Below, one piece after another: positions 20,698-51,019 of a DNA stretch of 64,000 nt (position 1 is the stretch's first letter; each line of letters starts with the position of its first letter). Under the pieces are notes generated by a model, which ran no database searches, was not told the origin of the DNA, and saw only the letters and a list, made by a program, of their open reading frames with translations. The stretch covers positions 2,150 to 66,149 of the forward strand of contig JBNKUM010000103.1 of the NCBI GenBank assembly GCA_050298595.1, given 5' to 3'. The translations under genes were made by a program, and so were the position numbers. Source of the DNA: Gammaproteobacteria bacterium (GTDB lineage: Bacteria; Pseudomonadota; Gammaproteobacteria; GCA-001735895).

Positions 20698-20712
20698 TTT
20701 CTCAACCAGTTT

Positions 20713-31223: not shown

Positions 31224-31265
31224 TTACAAAACCGTTTACTTAAACAATTTTCAATGGAGAGGAAG

Positions 31266-34421: not shown

Positions 34422-35093
34422 ATGAATCCGGTCATCAGCCTCAGCCATGTTAATAAATCCTATGCTATGGGAGAGCTTAGGCTTCCCGTTCTGAAAGATA
34501 TCAGCCTGGATATTTTGCCAGCTGAATTCGTTGCCATCATGGGGGCCTCCGGTTCTGGTAAAACAACCTTAATGAATATCCTTGGCTGCCTCGACACAAT
34601 GGATAGCGGTCATTACCAGCTGACAGGGGAAGATATTAGTAACTCAAGCAGTGATACTCTGGCCCGTTTACGCAACCAGCATATTGGTTTTATCTTCCAG
34701 TCTTTTAACCTGTTGTCCCGTATCGATATCGTGCGTAACGTTGAACTACCGCTGATCTATGCTGCCGTTCCAGCACATAGAAGAAAACAGATGGCTATAG
34801 AGGCACTGCATCAGGTTGGTCTGGGGGATAGACTGGATCATCTGCCGAGCCAGATTTCAGGCGGACAGCAACAACGCGTAGCCATCGCCCGTGCCCTGAT
34901 TACCGAACCCGATGTGTTGCTGGCCGATGAGCCCACCGGTAGTCTGGACAGTGTCAATGGGCGCGAAATCATGCAACTGTTTGAGTCTCTCAACCAGCAG
35001 GGTAAAACCATCGTCATGGTCACCCACGAAGCAGAGATCGCTGACTATGCAAGCAGGCGAATTACCATGCAGGATGGTGAAATCAGGTGTTAA
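34422..35093 (+). CDS. ABC transporter ATP-binding protein (MacB/LolD family)
   Basis: Walker [10 protein letters not shown], signature [14 protein letters not shown], Walker [12 protein letters not shown]. Confidence 0.9.
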
Positions 35094-36319
35094 CCAGAAT
35101 ATTTGATTATTTCGCCGAAGCTCTGCGCGCTTTACGCGATAACCGAACCCGCACCCTGCTCAGCATCCTGGGTATCATGATTGGCATTGCTGCGGTGATC
35201 GCTGTCAGCACCATCAGCAAGGGTGGCAATCACCTGATCTTTCGCGAACTGGAAACCTTTGGATTGAAATCGGTCTGGGTATATCGCCATAACAGTAACA
35301 AGGATCCGAACCGTAAAACACGGCCTGGAACGGGTATAGACGAAGATGATCTAAGGCTGCTGGCAAAGTGCTGCGATGCCGTGCACAGTCTGTCACCGGT
35401 AGTACGCCCTGCTAAAACACCAATCATTCAAAATCACAACCGCTATAGCAATGCGCAAATTCGCGGTGTGAACGCTCATTTTTCACTCATCGCCAACGAT
35501 AAACTGCAACAGGGACGTTTCCTGCAGCAAAGCGATATCGATCAACACCGGGCTGTAGTGGTGATCGGTCCAACTGTGGCGAAGGATCTATTTGGTGCTT
35601 CCAATGCACTCAACCGTTTCATCCGTATCGATCAGCATAAATATCTGGTTGTCGGCCTGCTTAAGGAGAAGAGCCGAGATTTTCTATCCAGCATTGGTTC
35701 GTCGGGTGGCCAGGATGCCAATAACCGTATCCTGTTGCCCTACACGACCCTGCTGAAAACCAATGGCAACGATCAGATAAATTTTTTGCGTATTGAGGCG
35801 AATTCACTGCAGGTGGCTGATCGCTCCGCATTACAGATAGAGACCCTGCTCAAGCGCATACATAAAGGACAGTTCGACTACATGCACGAAACCATGGCCT
35901 CTTACATCAAGACCACCAACACGATTTTACGCGGCGTTGAGATTATCGGTATAGTCGCTGCCTCTATTTCACTGCTGGTCGGGGGTATGGGTATCATGAA
36001 CATCATGGGTACCTCGGTACTGGAACGAACTCGCGAAATAGGCCTGCGCAAGGCTCTGGGCGCCAGGAAAATTGATATCCTGTGGCAGTTCCTGATCGAA
36101 GCGACAATGATCGCGCTGATCGGTGGTAGCGCTGGTTTACTGCTCGGCGGACTGCTCAGCATCCTGCTGGCACAGATCACTGGCTTCCCGCTCACACCCA
36201 GCCTGTTCATTATCGTACTGGGATTTGCAGTATCGGTTCTAACAGGTATACTTTCTGGATATCTGCCGGCTAAACGAGCGGCGTTACTACCCCCGGTGGA
36301 TGCACTTCGCCATGAGTGA
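35087..36319 (+). CDS. FtsX/MacB-type ABC permease with a large periplasmic domain
   Basis: 410 aa with MacB_PCD-like topology and a C-terminal FtsX domain (REIGLRKALGARKIDIL). Overlaps the ATPase gene. Confidence 0.88.
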   Translation: MLTRIFDYFAEALRALRDNRTRTLLSILGIMIGIAAVIAVSTISKGGNHLIFRELETFGLKSVWVYRHNSNKDPNRKTRPGTGIDEDDLRLLAKCCDAVHSLSPVVRPAKTPIIQNHNRYSNAQIRGVNAHFSLIANDKLQQGRFLQQSDIDQHRAVVVIGPTVAKDLFGASNALNRFIRIDQHKYLVVGLLKEKSRDFLSSIGSSGGQDANNRILLPYTTLLKTNGNDQINFLRIEANSLQVADRSALQIETLLKRIHKGQFDYMHETMASYIKTTNTILRGVEIIGIVAASISLLVGGMGIMNIMGTSVLERTREIGLRKALGARKIDILWQFLIEATMIALIGGSAGLLLGGLLSILLAQITGFPLTPSLFIIVLGFAVSVLTGILSGYLPAKRAALLPPVDALRHE

Positions 36320-36484
36320 ATAACAACAAAAAAATCGCTGAGCACCTCTGACCAACTTCATTTCAGGGAGGATTATGCTTACAAAACGACAGCAAAAACT
36401 TTATGACTCCTTCTATGCCCTTTGAGTGCTTCGGGTTGTGGCTAAAAATGTACCCTCGTTGCTAGCTAGATGGACGTAGGTAAG

Positions 36485-36516: not shown

Positions 36517-39174
36517 TCAATGTATGTAATCTACCCCGATATCCCGACTCAATTTATCATGATAATATTTATACTTAATCTGTGTTTCTATGCCGTGACA
36601 ATCGACGCAGAAGGTGTTCTTAACATCCTTTAGGCGTAAAAAGCTGTTTAACACATTGCCCTGTTTATTTTTTTCTTCTGGATTTAACCGAGGATTTCTG
36701 GAGCTATCTTCTCCAGCTTGCCAGTGATGTGGCTCATGGCAGGTAATGCAGGCAATGGCTCCAAATTCTGAGATTTTTTCTTCATCATCCAGTAACGGCA
36801 TCACTTCTGGATCAGATCTTAAAACCAGATCCTTAGCCGGGTGCGAAAAATGTTCCACAACCATCTTATCCGCCACACACTTTTCCAGATGACAATCTAG
36901 ACAGAGTTGATCACGCTGGAATACTTTTTCGTTTTCTGTATACGCTGATATTACTCCTGAAAACAGAAAAGGTGCCTCTCCTTCTCCTCGATGCATGCTA
37001 TGGCAGCTACCACAGGCTCCACTTTGTTCGGCGGTCTGCTCAAACCTATTCATGCTTTTTTCTGCTGTAATGCGTAAATCATGATCACTATTTACAATGG
37101 CATTATTTCCTTTGTGGCAGTGGCTACATAGCTCGCCATTCTTATCGTCTTCGCGTAATACGGCTGTATCAGGTTTTCCAGCATGTACGCTATGACAACT
37201 CAGGCAGGTCATTGCGGTGATTTCTTCACCATCTATCTTAACGGCCTCTTCAAGTTTCATATTCACCGCATGCACACCTTTTTTACGCGCATCCCTTTCG
37301 TTTGTCGCATGTTGTCGTGGATGGCAGCTAGCGCATAACTTTTCGATATCTGCTGTAGTACGAGTTAACAGCTTTGAGTTTTCTCTACCGCTGTGTGCTG
37401 AATGACAAACCAGACAGGTTACCTGCTTAACCTTTACACCATTAAGCTCCACCGCCTCTTCCATTTCAATATCTACCGGATGGATACCTTTGTGATGCGC
37501 CTGTTTTTTATCCTTGCTGTGTAATTCTTGATGGCAACTTTCGCATAACTCATTGCTGTCAAAACCCGCTGGCAAAAGCTGCTCCCCAGATGCTCCATGT
37601 ATCTGGTGACAACTTTGACAGATCAACTGCTGATCAGAGCCTACACTGGCCCCTGCAAGCTTTAGTTCATTGGGTAATCCTTTTTGCAGGCTTTCAGTTC
37701 GTGCATAGCGTTCAGGATCATTTGCCGGCTCAGGTGTTTGTAAATATAGCCCTACCGGATGGTTGATCCCGCGTACAGGGTGTTGATCATCCAGCACACT
37801 ATCCAGTTTGGATTCATGACATTGCTGACATAAATCACCCTCCTTATTCAAAATTCTCAACCAGGGATTAGAATGAGATTCATACAGGGTATCTGACTCT
37901 TTTATATCTGCGGTATGCGGGGTGTGACAACTGCCGCAATAAAGTTGATCATCCCCTATCAAGGGAAACTCTGCAGGTACCTTATCCTGTTCTTCAGTTT
38001 TTGTCTTTCTGGATGGGTCTCGTTGATGATGAATATCCGGGTGCTGCTTGCCACTACCAATGCTTACACGCGAATCAATCACTGCGCCGTGGTGACAGCT
38101 ATAGCACATTTTCTGTGATGCTACGGGAAGCACGCCATCCTGATCTTTCTGCTCGCTGCGTGAGGATACAGCCCAGGAGTAGTGACAGGTATCGCAGTTT
38201 TTACGCGAGGTTTTAATGTTACCTGTGCCAGGTTTTTTTTCGAGCAGTATGCCTTTATCATCATCGCCAGATTTAAATACTTCCACGCGATTACTAATCA
38301 CATCGACCACATATAGTTTATCGTTGCGCCATGCAAGTCCAACGGGGGCTTCAAATTTCCTGGCAGTATCATCATCAACCGAGAGATAACCGCTGAACCG
38401 ACCATCGATAAAAATAGATACCTTCCCCAGATAGCTATCGCTGATAAACATTCTCCCATCATCGGCAAATGCAATTCCGTTGGGTCGGTATAATTCACCA
38501 TCGGCGATGCCAAAATGCGCAATCTTTAAATAAAGCCTTCCTTTCGGGTTAAATGCTTTAATCCGCCCATTTAAAACATCAACGACATACAGATAACCAT
38601 CCCGGTCTGCGGCGATGTGGAATGGAAATTGAAATTCTGCATCTCCCTCTCCCCGCTTACCCCAGCACTGCATGGTGGTCCCTGTAGATAGTCGAGTCTG
38701 GCACAGTGAATGATTTTTTCTGTCACTCCAGCTGATGACATCATCTTTAACACTCAACCCCACCGGCTCTGGTGGCTGTGCTGGAAATTGTTGATTGACC
38801 AGTGCAATGTTTTCTATAAATCGTCCCTTTTTGTCAAATACTGCAATTCTATGATTCGTAGTATCGGCGATAAATACTTTATCATCTGCAATCGTAATCG
38901 CCATCGGCAGATGCAATTCACCAGAGCCTCGCCCCTGTTTACCAAAGGTAAATAATCGCCTGCCTTTGGCTGAAAGTACGACAACCCGATGCTGAGCCCC
39001 ATCGAGAATGTAGAGTTGTTCTTTTTCTGAAATTACAATATCCGAGGGTTGATCCAAACCAGAACGATAACTTGCTATTTGTCTCGCATGCTGACTAACT
39101 GCTTCAACATTTTGTACTACGAGATTCAGAACACAAAAAGCTATCGATAAAAAAGTGAATCTGCTAACTGGCAT
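36517..39174 (-). CDS. NHL-repeat beta-propeller fused to a multiheme cytochrome c (14 CXXCH)
   Basis: Signal peptide. The first 300 aa or so carry NHL-type repeats (NHRIAVFDKKGRF, LNGRIKAFNPKGR, SNRVEVF). I then counted 14 CXXCH motifs in the provided translation, many arranged as paired-CXXCH modules. Confidence 0.88.
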   Translation of the reverse strand: MPVSRFTFLSIAFCVLNLVVQNVEAVSQHARQIASYRSGLDQPSDIVISEKEQLYILDGAQHRVVVLSAKGRRLFTFGKQGRGSGELHLPMAITIADDKVFIADTTNHRIAVFDKKGRFIENIALVNQQFPAQPPEPVGLSVKDDVISWSDRKNHSLCQTRLSTGTTMQCWGKRGEGDAEFQFPFHIAADRDGYLYVVDVLNGRIKAFNPKGRLYLKIAHFGIADGELYRPNGIAFADDGRMFISDSYLGKVSIFIDGRFSGYLSVDDDTARKFEAPVGLAWRNDKLYVVDVISNRVEVFKSGDDDKGILLEKKPGTGNIKTSRKNCDTCHYSWAVSSRSEQKDQDGVLPVASQKMCYSCHHGAVIDSRVSIGSGKQHPDIHHQRDPSRKTKTEEQDKVPAEFPLIGDDQLYCGSCHTPHTADIKESDTLYESHSNPWLRILNKEGDLCQQCHESKLDSVLDDQHPVRGINHPVGLYLQTPEPANDPERYARTESLQKGLPNELKLAGASVGSDQQLICQSCHQIHGASGEQLLPAGFDSNELCESCHQELHSKDKKQAHHKGIHPVDIEMEEAVELNGVKVKQVTCLVCHSAHSGRENSKLLTRTTADIEKLCASCHPRQHATNERDARKKGVHAVNMKLEEAVKIDGEEITAMTCLSCHSVHAGKPDTAVLREDDKNGELCSHCHKGNNAIVNSDHDLRITAEKSMNRFEQTAEQSGACGSCHSMHRGEGEAPFLFSGVISAYTENEKVFQRDQLCLDCHLEKCVADKMVVEHFSHPAKDLVLRSDPEVMPLLDDEEKISEFGAIACITCHEPHHWQAGEDSSRNPRLNPEEKNKQGNVLNSFLRLKDVKNTFCVDCHGIETQIKYKYYHDKLSRDIGVDYIH

Positions 39175-39176
39175 GT

Positions 39177-39959
39177 TTATCTCAACAGATCACTCATTTT
39201 TAATCGATCACCTTTCTTTTTATAGCGCGTAAAGAAATGTGCGATGCTGTTATTGGTAATTGAGTGGGTCAGCCTTTCACTTGCACCCAGATAGGAATAA
39301 TCCAGTAACTTCTGTTTTTCATCATGACAATGCTGACAACTAATCCCCTTTTTATTCAGAGGAGCATGCAGTTTTACCTTGAGTTTAGCTTTCTCTTCAT
39401 CCGCCGAATTTTTCCACTGCTGTTTCACTTCAGAAGAAAATGGATCATCCTTAAAAACAACCAGGACCTGCCCCCGGTAAACAGGTGCAATTTTTAATCC
39501 GGGCCGGGGTAATAACGAGGTTTTAGTCTTATCAGCCAGGGTATGAATCGATTGAGACACATCGATAATTTCTCCGGTATTTGGATAATCATAAGCCAGC
39601 CATTGATAATCCAGATCTAAGCCCTCGGTATTAAAGTGACAGGTCTCGCAGCTTATGTAATTGCTGTGCATATTCAAAAAGCTTCGATTCAACTCGTTAG
39701 CCTGATGAGGCTTATCCAGATGACAATTTAGACAAAAATCCTGTTTCAGTGATGCATGAGTTTCAACGCGATGATGAAAGGGATTTACATTCAGGCCATT
39801 TTTAAGCTGAATATCTTTATGCGCTTTAAGTTGTTTGCTGGCATCAGCTAGTTCGTTATCGGTAACCTGATGTGAATTAACACGATCATTAAACAGGTTC
39901 TCGGCTAAAACCGGCCAACAAAAGCTAAGCGTGAAAATGATAAAGCAAAACCTAATCAT
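39177..39959 (-). CDS. Periplasmic triheme cytochrome c
   Basis: Signal peptide MIRFCFIIFTLSFCWPVLA/EN. CLNCH, CETCH and CQHCH. Confidence 0.8.
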   Translation of the reverse strand: MIRFCFIIFTLSFCWPVLAENLFNDRVNSHQVTDNELADASKQLKAHKDIQLKNGLNVNPFHHRVETHASLKQDFCLNCHLDKPHQANELNRSFLNMHSNYISCETCHFNTEGLDLDYQWLAYDYPNTGEIIDVSQSIHTLADKTKTSLLPRPGLKIAPVYRGQVLVVFKDDPFSSEVKQQWKNSADEEKAKLKVKLHAPLNKKGISCQHCHDEKQKLLDYSYLGASERLTHSITNNSIAHFFTRYKKKGDRLKMSDLLR

Positions 39960-42198
39960 CTTTTTTATCTCCCTCTTTGTTATCCTGTTTAATACTTTCT
40001 GGAGTAGATTTTGTTCTGCTTTTAGCTGGATTATCAGGTAGTTTTTTATTCACGGACGACTTATCCTTACGTGGCGAGCGGCCCAGAACTTTTTTCTGAA
40101 AATGATCGCCTCCAACCACTGCAAAGATAACTGACTTTTTCTTACCGAATATTTTCCACAGCAACGAGCCTCCACCTAGAATTAGAATAACCGGTAATAA
40201 GGCAATAATTGCCTTAACCCAGCTTGACTCCATGCGCGACTGGTCGAGCGGGGAATCAGGATCGAGAATTGGAATGATGTCGATATCGTGTAGATCGGTT
40301 TTAACAAAGCCGTCATTCAGCGGGTTAGTAGTAAAGCCATGGCATTGCGATGCGGCACAGGTTTCTGCAAGATTCTGCGGATGCGTTGCCGCATCGGTTT
40401 CAGTATGACGCTTAATGCCATGATTAAAACCATCAGGAGCATGACAGTCTATGCAGGATGCGCCCTCCTCTACACCTGTTTTTAACAAGCGTCCATGCAG
40501 ACTCATTTCATAGCTATCACTGGCGAGAATAAATTTCGAGCCTGCTTTATGTTTCTCTCCGCTGATCGTGTCTTCAATCTCAACCGTAGCCATGCGCTTA
40601 TGATCCGCATGGCATGCATTACACATTTCATTCTTGTCAGACTTATTCCAGCGTGAGCCTATAAACCGTCGTAATATATGGCCGCCAAATTGATTCAACC
40701 ATACCTCGCCCTGATGACAGCTGCCACACTCTGTTTCCAGATGAGCGAAAGAGTCCTTAAATTTAGGGATGTCTTTTTCATTGATATATAACTCATTATC
40801 GTGACAGGCGCGGCAGGAAGGGTTTACATCCAGAGACTCTTCAAGACGATTTCCGCCAGTCAAACCTTTCGTCCAGCCGTTGCCATGTGCAGATTCCTTA
40901 AACTCATCAACCACTTCTTTATGTGTGTACGCGCCTTCACCAGAGGGTTCTTCGACATGGCATGACTCAGCACAATCCACCTCCCCGTTTTCAACCTTAT
41001 GCGGATATTGTTCTATCTTACGATGACAATCTTTACAGGGGACACTACCATGCAATGAACTGAAGTAATGCGATTCATCAATACTTGCATCACGTAACAC
41101 GCCATTTTCATCGATATACGATAACCCCTTTAAAGCATGGCAGGAAAAACAGCCATCAGGATCAGGATGTCGTTCGGAGGCAAAAACCTGTGTAACCACG
41201 ATAACCATTAAAATAAAACCAAAAAACACACCTACCGCAACGCGCTGCCAGCTGCTCACCTTCCATAGCTGTTTTTCTATGCTATGAACAGCTTTCCAGT
41301 CTGGATGAGGAAAGTATTCCACACCCTTCTTTTTTCGTTTGGGTTCAACTGAGCGGGGCACCGAAACCCAGTCTATAGCATGCCAGTCACAGACATCGAC
41401 ACACTCATGACAGGACATGCAGGAATGCTGATCGACCACTGCAATTTTATCTATCATGGTAATTGCACCGGTCATACATTTTCGTGCACAGATATTGCAT
41501 CCGGTACAACGGCTACGCTCAACTCGAATATGCCGCGTAAACCTAAACGATGAGCCCAGGCGATTGACCAGGCCATCGATTGCACCAATGGGACATAGAA
41601 ACTGACAATATCCACGCCCTTTTACCGCAAAAAAACCAAGCAGAAATAAAAGTGCCAGATTCACCAGACCGACGGCTGAAAGGATAAAGGCAATCCCCAT
41701 CAAGTCGCCACTAAACGCCTGAAAGATGCGAGGTACCGTTACAAAGTTACATAAGGTACAGGCACTAACCCCGAACATCGGCATCACAACCAGATATACG
41801 CTGAAATAACCATAACGGATGGGAACCTGAGGCAGACCACGATATTCTATTTTCCAGCGATCAGGAATCATGCGGCTGATGATTTCAGGCAAGCCACCCA
41901 TTGGACAAAGATAACCACACCACATGCGACCAAAAAAGAAACTGGTTAACAGAATAATGCTCAGTGCAATCACTCCAATCCAGGCAACGCTCATCTGGTT
42001 ACCCAGATCTTCCAGAGACATACCTGGAAAATACAGAAAAAAACGTCTCACACATACCTTACCGCAGAGATCAGGATTACCCACAATACTGGGTAAAAAG
42101 ACCCACGGGGCAAGAATGGCACAGCTTGTAAGAATGATCAGAAAGAATCGGTATTTCTGCCCGTTCGGTATTGCCTTGATGTTTTCGAAGAGTTTCAT
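39952..42198 (-). CDS. Fusion of a NapH/polyferredoxin-type membrane iron-sulfur protein and a multiheme cytochrome c
   Basis: Two CX3CP motifs (WCGYLCPMG, YCQFLCPIG). Two 4Fe-4S motifs (CTGCNICARKC, CMSCHECVDVC). After a further TM segment come six CXXCH plus one CX3CH (CAESCH) and one CX4CH (CAASQCH), then a C-terminal TM and a Lys-rich tail. I place the start at the ATG at 42198 (MKLFENIK), 5 nt after the upstream stop. The track start at 42273 would overlap the upstream gene. Confidence 0.85.
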   Translation of the reverse strand: MKLFENIKAIPNGQKYRFFLIILTSCAILAPWVFLPSIVGNPDLCGKVCVRRFFLYFPGMSLEDLGNQMSVAWIGVIALSIILLTSFFFGRMWCGYLCPMGGLPEIISRMIPDRWKIEYRGLPQVPIRYGYFSVYLVVMPMFGVSACTLCNFVTVPRIFQAFSGDLMGIAFILSAVGLVNLALLFLLGFFAVKGRGYCQFLCPIGAIDGLVNRLGSSFRFTRHIRVERSRCTGCNICARKCMTGAITMIDKIAVVDQHSCMSCHECVDVCDWHAIDWVSVPRSVEPKRKKKGVEYFPHPDWKAVHSIEKQLWKVSSWQRVAVGVFFGFILMVIVVTQVFASERHPDPDGCFSCHALKGLSYIDENGVLRDASIDESHYFSSLHGSVPCKDCHRKIEQYPHKVENGEVDCAESCHVEEPSGEGAYTHKEVVDEFKESAHGNGWTKGLTGGNRLEESLDVNPSCRACHDNELYINEKDIPKFKDSFAHLETECGSCHQGEVWLNQFGGHILRRFIGSRWNKSDKNEMCNACHADHKRMATVEIEDTISGEKHKAGSKFILASDSYEMSLHGRLLKTGVEEGASCIDCHAPDGFNHGIKRHTETDAATHPQNLAETCAASQCHGFTTNPLNDGFVKTDLHDIDIIPILDPDSPLDQSRMESSWVKAIIALLPVILILGGGSLLWKIFGKKKSVIFAVVGGDHFQKKVLGRSPRKDKSSVNKKLPDNPAKSRTKSTPESIKQDNKEGDKKDD

Positions 42199-42202
42199 AT
42201 TT

Positions 42203-43066
42203 CTATTGATCAAATTGGTGACAGGCCAGACAAAGCGTTCCATCCTTTGCAGGTAGACGCAGTAACACTTCAAACTCGAGGCGCTGGTAAGAAATAGTCA
42301 GGTTCTGATCCGTATCCTTATTCAGCTCATCCAGACGTTTTTGCTTATCCCTTTGCACGACTTCGTTCCAGTCATGATCCTGATAAGCGATACCCTTTGC
42401 CAAATCCCTGTCCTGAACCTGCTGGGATGCTTGCTTAGTTTCTATGACACCTTTTTCGTGACTGCTATGACAGGTAACACAGAGGATTTTTTTACCATCC
42501 AGTGGCAATACAAGCTGCTGCTTCTGTTCTGTCTCATGTAGCTGTTGCAACATATCGTCATCTACTTCTACCAGATGATTGAAAGCATTCAGATGAGGCG
42601 ACTTCAGGTGGCAACCAATACATAACTTCTGTGGAGGGAGACGCAAATCCAGTTCTTCGAGTGTATAGGATCGGTCTCGCTCAGGCGTTTTGACATGACA
42701 AAACTGACATTGATCTTCTTTAATATCACCCTGCTCATCCAGTAGGATATGGATGTTATTACGCTGGTACTGTTTTTCGTCATGACACTGGTAACAGAAA
42801 TCACTTAGCTCTGGATAAGGCCCCTGAATAAAGAAGTTCGCATCTTTTTTGTCCACTTCTTCATATGGAATATCTGCAATATCCTTAATGCCATGACAGG
42901 TCTTACAATCTATCTGATCCTTATCATTCAGAAGGAAATTTTTCGGGATAGTCATAGCATCGGGGACAGCCACCTGCACAACATGATGTAATGGTGGCAG
43001 CTTATTATCGGCAGAAATAGCAAGGGGCAAAAATAATGATAGTAATATCGGTAGCTTCATCATCAC
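42203..43066 (-). CDS. Periplasmic hexaheme cytochrome c
   Basis: Signal peptide MMMKLPILLSLFLPLAIS/AD. CKTCH, CYQCH, CQFCH, CIGCH, CVTCH and CLACH. Confidence 0.85.
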   Translation of the reverse strand: MMMKLPILLSLFLPLAISADNKLPPLHHVVQVAVPDAMTIPKNFLLNDKDQIDCKTCHGIKDIADIPYEEVDKKDANFFIQGPYPELSDFCYQCHDEKQYQRNNIHILLDEQGDIKEDQCQFCHVKTPERDRSYTLEELDLRLPPQKLCIGCHLKSPHLNAFNHLVEVDDDMLQQLHETEQKQQLVLPLDGKKILCVTCHSSHEKGVIETKQASQQVQDRDLAKGIAYQDHDWNEVVQRDKQKRLDELNKDTDQNLTISYQRLEFEVLLRLPAKDGTLCLACHQFDQ

Positions 43067-44028
43067 ATCCCTGCCTGTATGGATTCACCATGGCTATGGC
43101 ATTGCTTACAATCGCCGGTAATCTGATGCAACCCTGACAATCCATTGCCGGTATCCAGATCTGACTGATCGGCGGTTACCGACATCTGATGGCACATCAC
43201 ACACAACTGTGCATTATTGGTTGCGGTATTATCTATGCTGTAGGATTTATTCCTGATTGCGGGATCAAGCCGGCTCAGACCCTTTTCTGAACTATCAATG
43301 ACCAGCCCGGCATTATTAGTCCCATGCATTGCATGACAATCGGTACATTCAACCACGGTCTGATATTCATAGCCTTCCCGCAATCCGGAGAAACTATGGC
43401 TACCGGTACCTGAGGTTTCGCCATGTTTGTCAACATATTTAAAGTAATCTTCACTGCCAATCAGTGCACTGGCGTAGTCAGCTGTAATATTAAAATCTGT
43501 CTGCTGATGATCGCGGTTATGACAACGTAAACAAAATTCAGAAACTGAGCTGTATTCTGAATACAGTCCATGCGCATCTGTAAAGCGAGTTAAATCTCGA
43601 TTATTATCGAATACACCATCCATATCCGAAGCCAGATGGCAGTCTATACATGCTTCATCCTTCATCTGTGCATCATTGCCAGTGATGAAACTGTGCGTAT
43701 GCAGCCCTGTCTGTATTGGCGAAGCTGTCAGATCAGAATCGTTATGGCAAATTAAACACTGACGTGCTTCTGAGGTACCGTTGCTACCATGGCAGCCAGT
43801 ACAGCTTGCATAGCCTTTGCTTTGTACGATTGAACGAATGCTATCAGCCTGTTGATGAATCAGATTCAAACCGTGGCAACTATCACACTCGGAAAGCCCC
43901 CAGGCCAGACCGCTGCCTCCATGTGATGAAGTTAATATTAGATTGCCACTTTGAGACGAGACCGTTTCTGTCTTATCTGAATCCACGCAACCCGCCAGCA
44001 ATAAAATACTCAGCAAAAGAATTCTCAT
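43063..44028 (-). CDS. Lipoprotein octaheme cytochrome c
   Basis: Start at the ATG at 44028 (ATGA overlap with the upstream stop) gives MRILLLSILLLAGC, a lipobox. Eight CXXCH motifs. Confidence 0.85.
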   Translation of the reverse strand: MRILLLSILLLAGCVDSDKTETVSSQSGNLILTSSHGGSGLAWGLSECDSCHGLNLIHQQADSIRSIVQSKGYASCTGCHGSNGTSEARQCLICHNDSDLTASPIQTGLHTHSFITGNDAQMKDEACIDCHLASDMDGVFDNNRDLTRFTDAHGLYSEYSSVSEFCLRCHNRDHQQTDFNITADYASALIGSEDYFKYVDKHGETSGTGSHSFSGLREGYEYQTVVECTDCHAMHGTNNAGLVIDSSEKGLSRLDPAIRNKSYSIDNTATNNAQLCVMCHQMSVTADQSDLDTGNGLSGLHQITGDCKQCHSHGESIQAGM

Positions 44029-44642
44029 GGTTTTGCTCTCCGGTGACAATCGGAGCAATACGACACATTATGACAACGTCCGCAGGACTGGGTATTGATG
44101 CGCGCATCTAAGCCATGAGCAATCAGGTAACCCGGTTGATGCTTGTTGTATTTCGTCGTGTCACGCTTGAAATGACAGTCAGTACAGAATGACATATCGA
44201 GGTGACAGGTCTGACACTGCCCATCATCCAGACGGGAGTCTTCTGCATGCTGATTGATGTAATCAAAGTCATGATCAACCGGCCAGATAGCAGTCTTATC
44301 GACATGACAAAGGTCGCACTTGAAAGCTGCTTTCTGTTTATCAACGTGACAATCGTGACAGATCGCTTCCATCGGTTCGTTGGAAATGGTAGTAATTAAT
44401 TTTATATCATCGGGCTTAACAACCTTATTAGCCCCAAAGGAATGACATAACAAACAGGGATCACCTTCCTGCTCCATCGCTTTGAAATGAATCTTATGCG
44501 GATAGAAAATATCAGGGCGATCATGTCGTTTTTGCCACCAGCTATCTTTTTTAGATGAGTCATTGTCAGTATCAACTGGAGTGTCTGCGGCAGACACCCA
44601 TGCTGCAAACAGTCCAGTAAGCACAAACAGTAATCTATTCAT
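44025..44642 (-). CDS. Periplasmic heptaheme cytochrome c (c3/c7-like)
   Basis: Start at 44642 gives MNRLLFVLTGLFAAWVSA/AD. Seven CXXCH. The FYPHKIHFKA...CLLCH arrangement resembles c3/c7-type heme units. Confidence 0.85.
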   Translation of the reverse strand: MNRLLFVLTGLFAAWVSAADTPVDTDNDSSKKDSWWQKRHDRPDIFYPHKIHFKAMEQEGDPCLLCHSFGANKVVKPDDIKLITTISNEPMEAICHDCHVDKQKAAFKCDLCHVDKTAIWPVDHDFDYINQHAEDSRLDDGQCQTCHLDMSFCTDCHFKRDTTKYNKHQPGYLIAHGLDARINTQSCGRCHNVSYCSDCHRRAKP

Positions 44643-45894
44643 CAGACCACCATTTGTTGGATGCATCAAACTGGTAACTGAGCTTTAATCCGAACTGATA
44701 CTCATCGTGTAAATGTGTATTCCAGATGCTAGACATTGAAAAGGTAAAATAAAGCCCCGAACCCAACATGCGCTCCACATTGGCTTCTACGCCCACGGCC
44801 TGATTACTACCAGTTAACCACTTATATTGAGATTGAATTGCGGCACCGAAGCGGGATTTCACCAGTGGTGAAAATGAGTAATTACTGTTTGCATAGAGTG
44901 AGATAAATTCATCTTGATCCAGCTGCAAATAGTCTATCTGTAACTGATACTCTCCACCTGTATATTCATGCACCTGTGATGCGAGAGATAATCCATAACC
45001 GCGTTTCCCATACTCACGTAATACCGTGCGCGCTTTTGCTATCCATTGCGTACTGGTGTTTTGCCTAAAGTAATAACTGCCCGTAAAAGCACTTTGGCGA
45101 CCCAATTCATATACCGAATAGAACTGTTGTGTGAAAGATAATGCTGGCTCAGTTAAGGTAAAGGTTTCATAGTCAAACTGAACTCTATCGGTTTCAGTAA
45201 TATCACTGAAAATCTTGAGCTGAACCTGTTCGGCATACTCTTCACTCATCAGATAAGTCGCATTAAGGCCCACAGCAAAATCATAGCTGGACGAATTGTG
45301 GATTTTTCCATCACCCGTAAAACCCAGGTTTAAACGTGTTTCATCATCTGCTTCATCGTTAATTTTCTGCACACCAAATCTGGCAATAGCTGTATCAAAA
45401 TAGACGACAGAAAATAATGGAGAAATGTTTATCTCCGAGAAGTGAAGATCCAAGCCATATAGAGCATCACCATGAATCGCACTGTAATCATCTACACGAG
45501 AAGGCTGACCGGCATATAAATTCAGTAGCACATTATCGTTTTTGGCTTTGATCAAAGCGCCATCCAGTGTGTACATGCCCAGACTGTCATAACGCTCCAT
45601 GCGCCCAATGCGATATGATTTAACTAAACCATCCAGCTGCTTTTCAAAGTACAGCTGATACAGGTTTTCTTCATTATCGTCACCCTGCCGTAGTGCAAAA
45701 CTCAAACCAGATTCAATGCCTCTTTGCTGATCAATGATTCTTATGTCTGCATATTCTTCGATAAAACCATTCTCATCAACCAGTCGATTTCCAGCCTGCA
45801 CTCGGCTTTCTAGTCGCCCATAGAAACCAGCCTGTACACTGTTCAGGGTGAGCAACAACATGAGTATTAATAACGTGCTGAAAAGGTCTTTCAA
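44635..45894 (-). CDS. Outer-membrane beta-barrel protein (putative porin of a porin-cytochrome complex)
   Basis: TTG start overlapping the upstream stop (TTGA). Signal peptide KDLFSTLLILMLLLTLNSVQA/G. About 400 aa of alternating hydrophobic/polar beta-strand pattern, no Cys and no heme motifs. Lies between cytochrome genes. Confidence 0.7.
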   Translation of the reverse strand: MKDLFSTLLILMLLLTLNSVQAGFYGRLESRVQAGNRLVDENGFIEEYADIRIIDQQRGIESGLSFALRQGDDNEENLYQLYFEKQLDGLVKSYRIGRMERYDSLGMYTLDGALIKAKNDNVLLNLYAGQPSRVDDYSAIHGDALYGLDLHFSEINISPLFSVVYFDTAIARFGVQKINDEADDETRLNLGFTGDGKIHNSSSYDFAVGLNATYLMSEEYAEQVQLKIFSDITETDRVQFDYETFTLTEPALSFTQQFYSVYELGRQSAFTGSYYFRQNTSTQWIAKARTVLREYGKRGYGLSLASQVHEYTGGEYQLQIDYLQLDQDEFISLYANSNYSFSPLVKSRFGAAIQSQYKWLTGSNQAVGVEANVERMLGSGLYFTFSMSSIWNTHLHDEYQFGLKLSYQFDASNKWWSDE

Positions 45895-46142
45895 AGCCTT
45901 TTATTGCTATGGGAATCCGCTGCGAATTGTTGTTTGTCACCCTTTCTCAAAACAGCCCATGACACCAGCGCTATCAGAGCAACTGCACAGCTACCACAGG
46001 TATTACAGCGACCCTCCCTGGTCACTGTACAGTTTGTTGACATGGCTATATGGGTCACAGCGAGAGAAGCACCCGCAACCCATGGCGCCAGCAGTTTCAG
46101 CTGTTTTGTGGTTTTCGAGTGTTTACTTTCTGACCTGTCCAT
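45891..46142 (-). CDS. Small Cys-rich membrane protein (83 aa), function unknown
   Basis: The ORF exactly fills the gap between the 984-aa cytochrome gene (stop 46145-47) and the barrel gene (its stop overlaps that start). Contains C-x9-C-x2-C-x2-C followed by a TM segment (AVALIALVSWAVL). Confidence 0.5.
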   Translation of the reverse strand: MDRSESKHSKTTKQLKLLAPWVAGASLAVTHIAMSTNCTVTREGRCNTCGSCAVALIALVSWAVLRKGDKQQFAADSHSNKRL

Positions 46143-46144
46143 GC

Positions 46145-49099
46145 TCAACCTCTAAATGGACTCAGTCTATTTTTTCTGACCAGTGTCAGTAACATGATAT
46201 TTAGAAAGATAAAGAACAGCCCAATACTGCCACCACTACGACTCACTGCTGATCCACTAGACCCTGAAGTCGCCGTTGATCCAGCAGTCTTAGCCGCAAC
46301 TTCAGTCGTTGTGTAGTAGCTAAAGTGGCTGGTTTTAAACACGATATAGCCATCCTGCATATCTGTTGCTGCTCGTACTAGCTGGATATCTGCAGGATCA
46401 ACTTTTGTCCAGGACTCACCATCTATAGAGGTAATGACATTGACCTGATCAGCAGAGCTACTACTGCCTCTATAAGGTAGTTTTACCCATACCGGAGCAG
46501 CAAATGTTGCTAATGTCGAGCCAGACTGCTTTTTGATTTTCAGTGCAAAAACTTCTGCTCCTGTCGATAAACTACCAAACCCGGCTGCAGCGGCTTTGGT
46601 CATTTCAGGGGTATCTCCCAGCTCGACCTGTAGTACATAACCGGCGAAATCATCATCACCGGATATGACCGCAACCTGTCGAATAGACTCATCACCCTGT
46701 CTAACCTGAAACATATGAGCCTTACTATTCCTGAACTGATCTGCCAGCTGAGCAGCATCATCAGCATTCGAAATGCCTAAGCCGGACATACCCTCTTCAA
46801 TAGTCGCAACATTGGTATAGGTTTTTGCTATTGAGGTAGCTTCTACAGCGATTGCAGAACGTAGCGCCGACATAGAGGGATTAACAATACTATCGGCCAG
46901 AATATCGGAGACATTGGCTGTTACCACACCTGTTTCAGCATCCATTTTCATATAAGGAGCATCAAACGTTACAATGCCCTCAGTAACCAGACGTGGATCA
47001 GGAACTGTGGTAACCACATAGCTGTTATTTTTTCCGAAGATTCCATCATCAGATACCAGCGCACTAATGGTTGTTCCATCAGACTTATAGTTATGACATT
47101 GCTCACATTGCACCGATGATACTGCGGGTCTTGTATTGTGTGATAACAGGTACTGGTTGATTTCTGACCACACCAGAATAGCATCGGAATTTTCTATACC
47201 GCTGATTTTAAACACCTTGTCATAAGCCTGTTTCAGACCTTTAAAACCTTCATAACTATCCGGGTCATTAAACCTGACACTACCATGTGAAAATCCTGCA
47301 GTCACCTCACCTAGTACCGCCCCTGTTTCAGGGTCAACTATCTGGCCTCCGGTCACGGTGCCATGGCTATCCTTAACCGGTTGAAAGACACTGTTTCGTT
47401 GAGTTCTATTGAGAACGATCCCACTGTTTTTATCCTTCCAGTAATATCGTGCCTTTGGTTTGTAAGGTACGATTGTTTTATCGCCATTTTCAGCTTCACG
47501 ATAACGATATACAGGATCGAAAGATACTCCTTTTATTGCCTTGCCTGTGATATGGCAGGCCTGACAACTCACCACGTCCAGATGCGTTTGAGTAATCTGT
47601 TCCAGAGTACTTTGAGGGTAACCGGACATGTCACCATTTAAAGTCCAGACCTTCTTATGCGCAGTCAACATGTCTGCATCACCCGATGGATTTGCCAATT
47701 CTGCAGCCTGTGGCGATTGCTCGTGACAGTATTCACAGGATTTGGCATTGGGGTTGTAATCCATATCATTATGTACATCCATATCAGAGTTCCCTTTCAG
47801 AAAATCATGACTGGCATCTACATCAGCACTGGCTGAAGGTGGATTAAAATAATTACGCGCATGGCAGGCATTACAGTTTTCTATGGTGCGCTCTTCTCCA
47901 TTATCTTCACGCCAGATTTTCCCTTTATGTACATCGTCCTGATAATCCTCTACCAACACACCTGTTTCTTCTTCTGCAATGGCTTCAGCCCCTTCACCAA
48001 AACCATAAAATCCTCGACGTGAGTTACTGGTCAAATGACATATCATACAGTTGTCATTCGCAGGGAAACGTAACATTGGAATCTCAGCTTTTCCATCGCT
48101 ATTAAAAGCATCGGAATTCCAGGTGACATGGGGCTTTAAATTTCCATTTTTATCTTCCTTATAGAGCAGTTCTTCAGGTGTAATAATTCCATCAGCCGGT
48201 ACTGCTGTTCCAGACATATGATCGAAAGATGCCTTATCTTCACGATCAAATGACAGCAGGGTTTTATCCAGTGACTCATCATCGCTAAGATTTAGATTCA
48301 ATATTTCTAGGATGGTGGAATTCGCTTCACGAAAATGTCCCTGACTGATTAACGCGGTTATACGCATAGTCCTCAACATAGTAGAGGCAGCTCCTGTCAC
48401 CTCAAGCTCTGGATCTACAATCTTCAATGCTGTGATATCAACATGACATAACAAACAGTCATTTTCCACCACACCAGATTTTTTCCAGTCCCACTGACTG
48501 ACTACCGAACTTGCTGCAATATTATTATTTTCATCGGTGCCTCGGTTGTAATATTCTCCATCAAATTCCGTCACCGTAGCTGGATCAACTTCATCGAAAC
48601 GATTTCCATTTCGATCTTTTTCCATCCAGCCTCCGCCTGAATGACAATAGGCGCAACCCTTAACCATACCGGGAGTTCCAAGATCAGCAAAATCATGAGG
48701 ATTAGTATTTGATTTTTTTGCCTGCCAGGATGGATTATTACCCCCCATACAGTTGTAACCACCTGCATAACCAGGAGAAATCAATAATGAGATGCCATGC
48801 TTTTCTCCATAGCTATCGCTCATTTCATCGCGACCAGCTTCTATATGGAAAGCATGAGTGATGACATTGTAATCATGACAACCGCCACAGGTTTGTTTTG
48901 AGCTATAGGGCTGACCGCTGTCCAGAACGTTATTGCCCTCTTCATCCAGAATGGGGAAAGCAGGTTTATGAATATAAGGTTCATCATAAACATTTGCCTG
49001 TACAGGTCCTGCAAATGCAAAAAACACATACACGGTAATAAACCGTAGCAGAGTATTGTTAATAGCTTTAAATACTGCGTCATGGGTTGGTAAAGTCAT
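46145..49099 (-). CDS. Large secreted octaheme cytochrome c with a non-heme C-terminal domain and a GlyGly-CTERM-like sorting tail
   Basis: Signal peptide (...FFAFAGPVQA/NV). Eight widely spaced CXXCH in the first 665 aa or so, then about 270 aa without heme motifs. The tail is SGSSGSAVSRSGGSIGLFFIFLNIMLLTLVRKNR. Confidence 0.85.
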   Translation of the reverse strand: MTLPTHDAVFKAINNTLLRFITVYVFFAFAGPVQANVYDEPYIHKPAFPILDEEGNNVLDSGQPYSSKQTCGGCHDYNVITHAFHIEAGRDEMSDSYGEKHGISLLISPGYAGGYNCMGGNNPSWQAKKSNTNPHDFADLGTPGMVKGCAYCHSGGGWMEKDRNGNRFDEVDPATVTEFDGEYYNRGTDENNNIAASSVVSQWDWKKSGVVENDCLLCHVDITALKIVDPELEVTGAASTMLRTMRITALISQGHFREANSTILEILNLNLSDDESLDKTLLSFDREDKASFDHMSGTAVPADGIITPEELLYKEDKNGNLKPHVTWNSDAFNSDGKAEIPMLRFPANDNCMICHLTSNSRRGFYGFGEGAEAIAEEETGVLVEDYQDDVHKGKIWREDNGEERTIENCNACHARNYFNPPSASADVDASHDFLKGNSDMDVHNDMDYNPNAKSCEYCHEQSPQAAELANPSGDADMLTAHKKVWTLNGDMSGYPQSTLEQITQTHLDVVSCQACHITGKAIKGVSFDPVYRYREAENGDKTIVPYKPKARYYWKDKNSGIVLNRTQRNSVFQPVKDSHGTVTGGQIVDPETGAVLGEVTAGFSHGSVRFNDPDSYEGFKGLKQAYDKVFKISGIENSDAILVWSEINQYLLSHNTRPAVSSVQCEQCHNYKSDGTTISALVSDDGIFGKNNSYVVTTVPDPRLVTEGIVTFDAPYMKMDAETGVVTANVSDILADSIVNPSMSALRSAIAVEATSIAKTYTNVATIEEGMSGLGISNADDAAQLADQFRNSKAHMFQVRQGDESIRQVAVISGDDDFAGYVLQVELGDTPEMTKAAAAGFGSLSTGAEVFALKIKKQSGSTLATFAAPVWVKLPYRGSSSSADQVNVITSIDGESWTKVDPADIQLVRAATDMQDGYIVFKTSHFSYYTTTEVAAKTAGSTATSGSSGSAVSRSGGSIGLFFIFLNIMLLTLVRKNRLSPFRG

Positions 49100-49551
49100 T
49101 TTTATTAGCCCTATAATTATTAGTACGCTTGATGCTGACTTATAAAGACAACCAGCATTTAATATTCAGGCGAGCATTATCATTAATAAATAATCGGCGT
49201 GAATGTGACAAATTGACACAGTTTGTAGGGTTATTAATTCTTTAAAGTTTGCTAAAGGTAAGCAAATTAAGGGTTGCAGGCGTATTTGTATTGTATTGAT
49301 CATAAATTGACCCAGATCAGGTCAAACTATGTTAGAAGTGATTCAGGACAGTTCACAAAAGTATTGCTTAACCTTTTGTACTCCTTTTACCCTGACACTA
49401 TTTTTACAAGAATGCCTGTTCATCGCCCTTCTGATCTGGGGCCTGTCCATGGAATAATCTGTCACATTAGCCAGGTTATTACTTTATTTTAATGGGACAA
49501 CCTTTTTTGATAGTTGAAAAATCGCCTGAAGTTTTAAGATAAACATATTAA

Positions 49552-49708: not shown

Positions 49709-49988
49709 ATCTGTGGTGAAATTATTCTAAATATTGAAATGGCTTAAACTTAGGTGTAATCAAGAAAAGGTTTACCTAAAAAACACTCGGATTTTGAATA
49801 TCAGGCTTGTAAACTGAGCTTTACCTGCCAGATTACAGTCTATACATAACGGTCTTTGCAGGCGACTTCACCTCTTGCTATTCTAGGGCCTGTAAACAGG
49901 CCCTGATAAGGCCAACCATGTAGTTTTTTGCAAACGACAACCGATTATCTAAACCTTGTCATCAAGCTCAGGTTTGTGCAAATGGCCG

Positions 49989-50819
49989 ATGATCAATAAA
50001 CATCCATTTCCTATTCACAACAGAAAATATTTCAGGCATTTGATAGTGGTAGATAATTTTAACAAACGAACTAAGGAAGCATTGGTACGGGGCACCGTGT
50101 GGGCATTTATTGGCAGCCTGTATGGCATGTTATTCATTTTTTTCTATAGCCTGTCTGAGCACTACTCGCTCCCAGTAAGCTCTTTTCTAGTTGCCGGAAC
50201 CCTGGCCGGAACCTTAGCTGCCTTAATCTATAGCAGCATGAGTCTTGCCGTCATTATCGCTTCAGTTTCATCGGTCACCAGTTTGATCATTGCGGTTTCC
50301 AACGATGGTAATATCGACCTGCTAAATCTGGTTTTAATCACTGCTTTCGTCGGTGCTCTGGTCGGCGCATGGTATGGCATATTTGCCAAACACTCTCGTG
50401 TATATCGAGCAGATGCCAAAACCCTGACAGGTATTTGCTCCGGCGGACTGGTTTCTCTGTTCATCTCCATCGTTAATTTTCTAATACCGTCTACGCCCAT
50501 GATGCTCACTATTGGAGCAAGTTGTCTCCTGACAGGATCATTGTATGTTGTGCTCGTGCCTGTTTTTGTCCAACGTTATGATGAGATACTTCCCCCTGTA
50601 GGTGATGGCGCTATGGTAGGAGCAGGTACCAGTGTGTTTATCGCCTTACTTTTTTTTGTCATGATCAGCGGCGTCACACCAGAATCAGCGGGAGATTTAC
50701 AGATACTTACAGAGCATATTAGAGACACCTTCCTACAGGCTTCTGTAGGTGGTATGTTGGGCGGAGGGATTGCCGGATTTATGTCTGGAATGATGTTGAA
50801 AGAATGGCAGGATTTGTGA
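49989..50819 (+). CDS. Hypothetical polytopic membrane protein (Gly-rich TM segments)
   Basis: About 7 hydrophobic segments. The track start is a TTG at 49956; the first ATG is at 49989. Confidence 0.55.
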   Translation: MINKHPFPIHNRKYFRHLIVVDNFNKRTKEALVRGTVWAFIGSLYGMLFIFFYSLSEHYSLPVSSFLVAGTLAGTLAALIYSSMSLAVIIASVSSVTSLIIAVSNDGNIDLLNLVLITAFVGALVGAWYGIFAKHSRVYRADAKTLTGICSGGLVSLFISIVNFLIPSTPMMLTIGASCLLTGSLYVVLVPVFVQRYDEILPPVGDGAMVGAGTSVFIALLFFVMISGVTPESAGDLQILTEHIRDTFLQASVGGMLGGGIAGFMSGMMLKEWQDL

Positions 50820-50873
50820 TCTGGAAATGAGCTTTCTCACCCAGATTTCAGAGTTTAAAACATTTCTATCACT

Positions 50874-51019
50874 GAGCGCACAGAGAACACGGAGGCTAAA
50901 ATTTTTATACTGGATATTTTCCGTAGATGCATAAAGTTTCAAGTAAGAAATCCATTTTAATATTATAATCGTCAGACTAACTGGTTCCCTCTGAGTCCTC
51001 TGTGTGCTCTGTGGTGAGT
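50874..51019. repeat. MITE-like element: imperfect terminal inverted repeats around an AT-rich core
   Basis: The reverse complement of gagcgcacagagaacacggaggct (50874-97) matches cctctgtgtgctctgtggtg (50998-51017) at about 16 of 18 core positions. The same motif starts the repeat cluster at 49552. Confidence 0.5.

Follow-up and report, generated by a model that had tools for sequence, protein, structure and literature searches.

What do nine tightly packed genes, seven of which code for multiheme cytochromes, do together in the envelope of a gammaproteobacterium, and could their products carry electrons from the inner membrane out to the surface of the cell? This question is raised by positions 36517–49099 of a 64,000-nucleotide stretch of contig JBNKUM010000103.1 (GenBank assembly GCA_050298595.1), which is hereafter called the window and whose coordinates are used throughout. 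Porin–cytochrome conduits are a known route for electrons across the Gram-negative envelope, and those characterised come from metal reducers and iron oxidisers. Our analysis indicates that the cluster is probably a new family-level variant of such a conduit for extracellular electron transfer (EET), reaching from the inner membrane as far as the cell surface; we infer the EET function from the architecture of the cluster. The system is not categorically new. What is new is the fusion of a NapH-like membrane module to an octaheme domain, the fusion of an NHL beta-propeller to a 14-heme domain, and the combination in which these and the other parts occur.

Open reading frame (ORF) calling and translation placed nine genes on the minus strand, designated orf1 (at the high-coordinate end) to orf9, each of which overlaps or abuts the next. 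All of the packed ORFs reported in an earlier reading of the window, which was based on the nucleotide sequence and its translations (the sequence-only reading), are present, with the junctions as first written. Using the start codons backed by orthologue alignments, overlaps of 4 nt are found at orf1/orf2 (46145/46142), orf2/orf3 (45894/45891), orf4/orf5 (44028/44025), and orf5/orf6 (43066/43063) and overlaps of 8 nt at orf3/orf4 (44642/44635) and orf7/orf8 (39959/39952), and gaps of 4 and 2 nt separate orf6 from orf7 (42203/42198) and orf8 from orf9 (39177/39174), respectively. A consensus scan of the operon, a putative single transcript of 12.6 kb, for promoters and terminators gave counts at the level of shuffled sequences, and an Rfam scan gave no match in or near the operon.

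The heme-binding motif CXXCH occurs 8, 0, 0, 7, 8, 6, 7, 3, and 14 times in the products of orf1 to orf9, respectively. The 4,238 amino acids (aa) of the cluster hold these 53 strings, and the remaining 36 window ORFs (13,518 aa) hold none; when the residues of the cluster proteins were shuffled 500 times, the mean was 0.18 strings and the highest count 2. The density of the motif is far beyond chance. The orf7 product additionally carries one CX3CH and one CX4CH motif, and its seventh CXXCH string (C285MSCH, C285–H289) sits in the second CX2CX2CX3C motif for a [4Fe-4S] cluster. Because this string belongs to an Fe-S motif, orf7 contributes eight heme sites, and the operon total comes to 54 predicted hemes, i.e. 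52 CXXCH, one CX3CH, and one CX4CH. The count of 52 canonical sites (six in orf7) plus the two atypical ones given in the sequence-only reading is right once the Fe-S string is excluded.

In orf1 (including the nearly invariant H85), orf4, orf5, and orf6, there are as many conserved histidines outside the motifs as there are hemes. Such a one-to-one relationship is the expected signature of bis-histidine hemes, and because the heme counts are fixed across the family and the distal histidines match the hemes, these hemes are predicted to serve electron transfer rather than catalysis. A motif scan found no CXXCK or CX15CH catalytic motif in the cluster proteins. The Pfam model PF22113, which describes domains II/IV of MtrC/MtrF (a pentaheme-domain model), matches orf1, orf5, orf7, and orf9 with scores of 36.5–50.8 bits (gathering score, 30). 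The export and membrane signals that had been proposed for the products, namely signal peptides, the lipobox of orf5, and transmembrane (TM) segments, are present and are kept in the orthologues, and four of the cytochromes carry Sec signals.

At the inner membrane, the predicted component is orf7 (39952–42198), a protein of ~748 aa in which a NapH-like module is fused to a periplasmic octaheme domain. Its TM segments span residues 43–61, 96–114, 157–175, 183–201, 345–363, and 688–706. The NapH-like module (nt ~41254–42198) comprises four TM helices, two conserved CX3CP motifs (C119-x3-C123-P and C223-x3-C227-P), and two predicted cytoplasmic [4Fe-4S] clusters, whose ligands (C256/259/262/266 and C285/288/291/295) are conserved along with the heme motifs. 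The octaheme domain (nt ~40213–41184), containing the six CXXCH and the single CX3CH and CX4CH motifs, follows TM5, and the C-terminal end of the protein consists of TM6 and a Lys-rich cytoplasmic tail. Hemes of the c type are attached in the periplasm; because the hemes are periplasmic and one TM helix lies between the two domains, the Fe-S clusters can be assigned to the cytoplasm. The accepted topology of NapH also has the Fe-S clusters in the cytoplasm (PMC9012536).

In profile searches, orf7 matches Fer4_5 (PF12801; 57.4 bits, two stretches) and scores below the curated cut-offs of TIGR02163 NapH/MauN (67.2 versus 213 bits), NF007013 (58 versus 234 bits), and NosR (44.5 versus 1000 bits); its sequence matches in the PDB are ferredoxin and RnfB-type Fe-S domains only. 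The earlier description of a polyferredoxin-type protein is made more precise by the assignment of orf7 as a NapH-like Fer4_5 module fused to an octaheme domain.

The adjoining gene, orf8 (39177–39959), encodes a periplasmic triheme cytochrome of 260 aa with three CXXCH motifs and a signal peptide, which is the likely partner of the orf7 heme domain. In six homologue clusters (P0078, P0084, P0086, P0088, P0092, and P0099), orf8 is fused to the C-terminus of orf7, and the former orf8 signal peptide serves as a seventh TM helix in these fusions. Altogether, orf7 is found in three states, i.e. split into NapH and octaheme parts (L020, 9085–11293), fused as in the window, and fused further with orf8 (e.g. 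L019, 10001–12907). In the manner of a Rosetta-stone argument, the occurrence of split, fused, and further fused forms links the NapH-like module functionally to the octaheme domain and to the triheme protein.

A candidate outer-membrane unit is encoded by three consecutive genes, orf3, orf4, and orf5. The orf3 product (44635–45894) is a Cys-free protein of 419 aa with a signal peptide ending in ...VQA|G. Whether this protein is a beta-barrel had been set beforehand as a test, and the barrel assignment holds: an AlphaFold2 model built with 11 orthologues shows 22 strands (predicted local distance difference test (pLDDT), 73.3; predicted template modelling score (pTM), 0.64), and a Foldseek search of the PDB gave 305 matches at E <= 0.001, of which the best 50 are all outer-membrane barrels. 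Among these best 50 of 305, the usher pores FimD/PapC lead, and MOMP and OccK porins are also present. Against NCBIfam and Pfam, orf3 has no family at E <= 0.01, and Pfam at E <= 10 gives a spurious DUF match alone; a profile of the 11 orthologues found no chain in the PDB. We propose that orf3 is the sheath for a cytochrome that crosses the outer membrane.

The start of orf4 (44025–44642) overlaps the stop of the barrel gene by 8 nt, i.e. the two genes are translationally coupled. It encodes a small periplasmic cytochrome of ~205 aa with a Sec signal peptide and seven CXXCH motifs, corresponding to about one heme per 27 residues; the mature protein has ~190 residues. Seven non-motif histidines are conserved, and seven hemes are present in 14 of the 14 related loci tabulated. 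This heptaheme protein is proposed to insert in the barrel. Barrels of 22 strands are the class in which TonB-dependent transporters accommodate a plug domain of ~150 residues, and, judged from the model, the size of the orf3 barrel is compatible with a heptaheme protein of ~190 residues inside. The third gene, orf5 (43063–44028), encodes an octaheme lipoprotein of ~321 aa with eight CXXCH motifs, eight conserved non-motif histidines, and a lipobox (LLAGC) whose Cys24 is invariant in the orthologues. It scores 42.8 bits against PF22113 (cut-off, 30) and is the proposed outer-membrane-anchored cytochrome of the porin–cytochrome unit. Neither orf4 nor orf5 gave a significant match among PDB sequences.

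The proposed terminal cytochrome at the cell surface is orf1 (46145–49099), a secreted octaheme cytochrome of 984 aa. It begins with a signal peptide (ending in ...VQA|N) and carries eight CXXCH motifs over a stretch of ~600 residues; then come a C-terminal region that is rich in beta structure and free of hemes, a linker of Ser, Gly, and Thr, and a GlyGly-CTERM sorting signal (aa 955–984, nt 46148–46237; TIGR03501, 16.8 bits versus a cut-off of 15.5). The latter motif (C-terminal Gly-Gly, hydrophobic helix, and basic tail) is kept in the gammaproteobacterial orthologues. All eight heme motifs and seven non-motif histidines are invariant in an alignment of 35 sequences, in which H85 is nearly invariant. 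The score against PF22113 is 37 bits (cut-off, 30). Neither the sequence nor a profile of orf1 has a significant match in the PDB, and a fold search with its AlphaFold2 model retrieved no cytochrome, no MtrC-like fold, and no octaheme enzyme; the sole match is a small C-terminal beta-sandwich that is ZU5-like (E ~2e-3).

Between the genes for the surface cytochrome and the barrel lies orf2 (45891–46148), which encodes a small membrane protein of 83–85 aa (85 in the window) with two hydrophobic segments flanking a Cys loop. The loop has the invariant form C-x7-C-x2-C-x2-C (C40, C48, C51, and C54). The protein has no family in Pfam or NCBIfam, even at E <= 10, and is found in every related locus at 43–95% identity. 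A role as a small subunit with an Fe-S, metal-binding, or thiol-redox function is conceivable.

The two remaining cytochromes are orf6 (42203–43066), a periplasmic hexaheme protein of 287 aa with a signal peptide, six CXXCH motifs, and six conserved non-motif histidines, and orf9 (36517–39174), a secreted protein of 885 aa in which an NHL beta-propeller (nt ~38260–39057) precedes a 14-heme domain. For orf6, a weak match to the DmsE/MtrA family (33.4 bits, cut-off 192.2) was obtained, with nothing significant among PDB sequences. Residues ~40–305 of orf9 match solved NHL domains, namely those of Thin (E 2e-44) and TRIM71 (E 5e-30), and its Pfam scores are 92 bits for PF09699, 52 bits for NHL (PF01436), and 50.8 bits for PF22113. 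The 14 CXXCH motifs of orf9 correspond to 12–16 in the orthologues.

Each compartment, from inner membrane through periplasm and outer membrane to cell surface, thus has a predicted component, in agreement with the earlier claim of an inner-membrane-to-surface pathway. In the path that we propose, orf7 would exchange electrons with the quinone pool via its NapH-like membrane module or, possibly, by way of its two [4Fe-4S] clusters with a partner in the cytoplasm, and would hand them to its own periplasmic octaheme domain, on which the triheme orf8 would dock. The hexaheme orf6 and the NHL 14-heme protein orf9 would relay electrons through the periplasm. The heptaheme orf4, placed inside the 22-strand barrel of orf3 and touching the octaheme lipoprotein orf5, would constitute the trans-outer-membrane unit, and the octaheme orf1 with its GlyGly-CTERM signal would be the surface-exposed terminal cytochrome. 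We infer which subunits touch, as well as the direction of flow, which, as the sequence-only reading had held, is not readable from sequence. We lean towards outward flow, with quinol as the donor and an acceptor outside the cell, since oxidation of quinol is the canonical activity of NapH-type modules; uptake of electrons from reduced minerals is almost as plausible for these sulfur-oxidising hosts.

The nine genes occur together well beyond the window. Related loci were collected from contigs encoding barrel homologues and by screening the genomes of GTDB species. Wherever a locus is long enough to show them, all nine genes are collinear (14 distinct full-length related loci), which bears out the gene order seen in the window in a survey of other genomes, and the flanking genes are unrelated, differing everywhere (e.g. 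an Rnf operon in L003 and a rhodanese gene in L004 and L018). Heme counts across the family are 8/7/8/6/8/3/12–16 for orf1, orf4, orf5, orf6, orf7, orf8, and orf9, respectively. Loci were found in metagenome-assembled genomes (MAGs) of uncultured Gammaproteobacteria, Chromatiales, and Sedimenticola, and order and heme counts are kept in distant loci from Thiodiazotropha, a Galathealinum symbiont, two 'delta' MAGs, and a JGI metagenome. Because gene set and heme counts are strictly conserved across distant lineages with unrelated flanks, the comparison shows that the nine genes form one functional unit. A chance or historical juxtaposition of unrelated cytochrome genes without a common function is hardly conceivable, given the same gene order and heme counts from Gammaproteobacteria to 'Deltaproteobacteria' MAGs with differing flanks, the overlapping start and stop codons, and the fusion of neighbouring genes.

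Among syntenic loci, the identity of the barrel ranges from 97% down to 23%, and in loci where orf7, the slowest-evolving gene, is at 63–88% identity, the barrel, the fastest, is at 30–67%. A word-indexed search found ten barrel homologues, and an exhaustive profile search found 86 representatives in 1.84 billion proteins, the full-length ones being ~380–500 aa; the barrel thus appears to be a compact, dedicated family. The wider families of orf7 and orf1, clustered at 90% identity, comprise at least 232 and at least 343 clusters, respectively. Named members of these families include the symbionts Ca. Thiodiazotropha taylori and the endosymbionts of Galathealinum brachiosum, Lamellibrachia anaximandri, and Seepiophila jonesi, together with Ca. 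Venteria ishoeyi, Thiolapillus, Ca. Polarisedimenticolaceae, a Methylococcaceae MAG, and 'Deltaproteobacteria' MAGs. The hosts are mostly marine sulfur oxidisers, including symbionts of lucinid clams and siboglinid tubeworms.

The borders of the operon are also borders of similarity. In blastn comparisons of the window with the two closest MAGs, similarity to L006 (94.6% nucleotide identity) stops at 49335 and that to L007 (87.8%) at 49371, and downstream similarity to both stops at 36516, one base beyond the orf9 stop codon. The upstream limit of the block common to the closest MAGs delimits a conserved non-coding leader/promoter region on the minus strand (49100–49371), 5' of orf1. In L006 (94.6% identity), both flanks diverge within 2–3 kb of the operon. 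In L007 (88–91% nucleotide identity), MacAB efflux genes lie upstream of orf1, not downstream of orf9 (window 33219–36331 and 49795–50928 versus L007 1–4278). Because similarity ends at the operon borders and the MacAB genes are on the other side in one MAG, the 12.8-kb operon appears to move as a relocatable block, unless the MAGs are misassembled.

To what extent is this a known system? Full-text searches of the literature found no description of the cluster, and a published survey of outer-membrane multiheme cytochromes makes no mention of NHL, ferredoxin, or these hosts. The term 'NapH' in PMC13343851 and PMC11323493 stems from strain NaphS2 and naphthoate and is unrelated, and a Methylobacter EET cluster is of the MtrAB type. 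Publications on inactive chimneys and on iron-oxide respiration offer general background only.

A close parallel in architecture and gene order is with the Pcc porin–cytochrome clusters of Geobacter. The ombB-omaB-omcB genes encode a porin-like protein, an octaheme cytochrome of the periplasm, and an outer-membrane cytochrome (PMC5566968; PMC4245776), and orf3-orf4-orf5 show the same defining order of a barrel (~400–450 aa), a small periplasmic multiheme cytochrome, and a multiheme lipoprotein. Further cytochrome genes are attached in the Pcc and Ext clusters as they are here, and atypical CX3-4CH motifs also occur in both. However, the barrel partners carry 7 + 8 hemes here versus 8 + 12 in OmaB + OmcB, scores against the NCBIfam models NF041028 and NF040971, which derive from Geobacter, are far below cut-off (GSU2203 family, at most 55 versus 325 bits; ExtS, 15.5 versus 100 bits), and the hosts are sulfur-oxidising Gammaproteobacteria, not metal reducers. 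The homology criterion applied to Pcc by Shi et al. 2014 was BLAST E < 0.01; our likening to Pcc is by architecture and gene order. Added here are an inner-membrane module of its own, the NHL-14-heme protein, the Cys4 mini-protein, and the GlyGly-CTERM cytochrome.

With the Mtr, Mto, and Pio systems the cluster shares its logic, i.e. an inner-membrane quinol-linked cytochrome, periplasmic hemes, a cytochrome in a barrel, and a surface cytochrome, but there is no match to the MtrB/PioB family, and orf3 has 22 strands in 419 aa. Barrels of the MtrB/PioB family have ~700 aa. Their transmembrane regions number 24–32 (PMC5566968). The absence of MtrA and of NapC/CymA, both claimed previously, was borne out: the best scores against the MtrA/DmsE model TIGR03508 are 48.9, 33.4, and 20.1 bits for orf9, orf6, and orf8, respectively, versus a cut-off of 192.2, with no 10-heme protein, and the NapC/NirT match is 25.7 bits in a single orf5 stretch, with no such tetraheme protein. 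Unlike the systems with the surface lipoproteins MtrC and OmcA, the cluster has no 10-heme protein with two pentaheme and two beta-barrel domains; its PF22113 matches are at the domain level only.

The Uet cluster (uetABCDEFGHIJ) of Ca. Tenderia electrophaga and the Tenderiales is likewise a conserved, horizontally spread cluster in marine chemolithoautotrophic Gammaproteobacteria, and it also combines a barrel with several multiheme cytochromes and NHL beta-propellers; a second Tenderia cluster has an NHL-pentaheme protein. Parts of its own are the tetraheme UetA, the undecaheme UetJ, three c7 trihemes, the peptidyl-prolyl isomerase (PPIase) UetB, the cupredoxin UetF, the 28-strand UetC, and stand-alone NHL proteins, whereas no PPIase or cupredoxin domain was detected in our cluster proteins with Pfam and NCBIfam. 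Uet is without an inner-membrane Fe-S/heme protein, and the NHL fold, the sole Uet component found here, is fused to 14 hemes. The predicted and uncharacterised porin–cytochrome clusters PCC3 and PCC4 of neutrophilic iron oxidisers resemble the present cluster in having a dedicated inner-membrane protein. These proteins have five predicted TM segments and two WX3HX13H motifs (~300 aa in PCC3), and PCC3 has one periplasmic cytochrome with 21–27 hemes and one extracellular cytochrome with 10–35 hemes, whereas the window encodes seven smaller cytochromes (14 hemes at most) and a six-TM NapH-like Fe-S/heme fusion.

The hallmarks of the NapH/NosR/MauN proteins are present in the N-terminal half of orf7, which has four TM helices along with two CX3CP motifs and two [4Fe-4S] clusters on the cytoplasmic side. 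The protein differs from NapH in that the heme domain is in the same polypeptide and no NapG or NapA partner is present; Pfam and NCBIfam scans detected neither nap nor nos genes among the window ORFs, those of the cluster included. Among the inner-membrane quinol:multiheme-cytochrome oxidoreductases, which include CbcL, ImcH, and MtoC, proteins of the CbcL type have a cytochrome b anchor and not a NapH-like one. In an ANME-2c genome, a NapH gene precedes that of an 8-heme cytochrome, and the pair was noted as a possible quinol:cytochrome c oxidoreductase (PMC9012536); Dester_0351 and Theam_0871 of Desulfurobacterium and Thermovibrio, which lie beside Pcc clusters, have six CX2CH and two atypical motifs, as in orf7 (PMC4245776). 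Both are partial precedents for orf7, the latter pair being a possible homology lead by motif pattern. The suggestion in the sequence-only reading that the inner-membrane module, the NHL cytochrome, and the surface cytochrome are foreign to described systems therefore needs to be narrowed: precedents exist for NHL proteins (UetH/UetI and the NHL-pentaheme protein) and for NapH with an 8-heme cytochrome, and the fusion and the combination are new.

Several observations weigh against a trans-envelope conduit. The confidence of the barrel model is moderate (pLDDT 73), and in the fold search it most resembles usher pores and general porins rather than MtrB. For orf1, the model agrees with none of the known outer-membrane cytochromes and is of low confidence in the central heme-binding region (residues ~356–471), because AlphaFold2 has no hemes. 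The hexaheme orf6 and the NHL protein orf9 may be located in the periplasm or at the surface. No rhombosortase or cytochrome-maturation gene is present among the window ORFs scanned. Every locus comes from a MAG or a metagenome, with no isolate carrier identified, and several hosts are intracellular symbionts (Ca. Thiodiazotropha and siboglinid symbionts), for which a mineral or electrode partner is not obvious.

An alternative, which we regard as unlikely, is that the cluster encodes a redox system that respires or detoxifies a soluble or colloidal substrate (polysulfide/elemental sulfur, thiosulfate/tetrathionate, nitrite/hydroxylamine, or selenite/tellurite), with orf1 or orf9 as the catalytic subunit and the barrel as a substrate/product channel. 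The layout of orf1, with eight hemes over ~600 residues and large non-heme regions, is like that of octaheme enzymes, and a weak match to the octaheme tetrathionate reductase family was obtained (E 2e-8). This match corresponds, however, to 33.6 bits against a cut-off of 375 (TIGR04315) over one 200-residue stretch, the distal histidines of orf1 match its hemes one to one, and no octaheme enzyme in the PDB matches its model or sequence. The beta-propeller of orf9 is a fold that often binds substrates, the barrel is as similar to substrate porins as to anything, and hosts that are mostly sulfur oxidisers, including intracellular symbionts, would suit such chemistry, but neither of the two catalytic motifs is present, and such a reductase would have no need of 54 hemes or of lipoprotein and surface-sorted cytochromes.

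It is still less probable that orf3 is mainly an export or assembly pore, bringing orf1 and/or orf5 to the surface in an usher or two-partner manner, and not an electron sheath. The leading FimD/PapC matches reach E values down to 5e-10, the orf3 gene lies between the surface-cytochrome and lipoprotein-cytochrome genes, and a role of Geobacter porin–cytochrome barrels in cytochrome secretion has been raised as a speculation (PMC12307469). On the other hand, orf3 is without the usher plug, N-terminal, and C-terminal domains (419 aa versus ~800 for FimD), and the target-normalised TM-scores of its matches are 0.27–0.31. GlyGly-CTERM proteins and lipoproteins have sorting routes of their own, and the translational coupling of the heptaheme gene to the barrel gene fits the sheath model.

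Among the window ORFs scanned, no sulfur-oxidation or regulator gene lies next to the cluster, and the same holds for the rhombosortase and cytochrome-maturation genes mentioned above. Seven ORFs of 180–444 aa have no Pfam or NCBIfam family (49956–50819, 51060–51602, and 55267–56001 (+); 17247–17861, 20713–21537, 27809–29143, and 29662–30294), and the two family-less ORFs directly upstream of the operon are not kept beside it in the closest MAG. Including the GlyGly-CTERM of orf1 (46148–46237, minus strand), the window contains three C-terminal sorting signals, the others being in a PEP-CTERM protein (31254–31784, +) and in a marine proteobacterial sortase-target protein with a VWA domain (56136–58181, +). 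Two cobalamin riboswitches of 113 bits each (893–1108 and 6679–6904, −) are situated in the gene stretch at 1148–8729; they precede cobalamin salvage genes (CobS, CobT, CobU, CobQ, and a periplasmic binding protein), and a FecCD/ABC importer of the B12 type adjoins. The 1–8 kb stretch has a GC content of 52–58% versus 36–48% over most of the window. Genes at 19042–26853 (+) encode a eukaryote-like Ser/Thr protein kinase, a protein that combines a caspase domain (Peptidase_C14) with Sel1 repeats, and an autotransporter of 962 aa with a PKD-like domain. A 260-aa ORF at 9650–10432 (+) has a weak Pfam match to proteasome subunits (E 5.6e-9) and may be an Anbu-type bacterial proteasome homologue.

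The cluster is of interest because its composition is undescribed, because one mobile operon holds the complete system, and because it occurs widely among thiotrophs and chemosynthetic symbionts. Its main carriers, marine sulfur oxidisers and symbionts of the chemosynthetic kind, are organisms for which EET is outside the accepted physiology. A broader reading, which we put forward tentatively, is that the cluster represents an unrecognised, horizontally mobile family of trans-envelope conduits, characterised by the NapH-octaheme fusion and a barrel family of its own, and that EET may be widespread and overlooked in thiotrophs and animal chemosymbioses, with minerals, conductive sulfide chimneys, other cells, or host-derived acceptors as partners. 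As an entry point at the inner membrane, the NapH-like/octaheme fusion would be of a new type, and, being complete in one operon, the system would be attractive for heterologous expression. If functional, the conduit would give these organisms an anaerobic electron sink or make solid reduced minerals usable as electron donors, and it would bear on sulfide-mineral weathering, on sediment electro-ecology, and on the survival of symbionts outside or inside their hosts.

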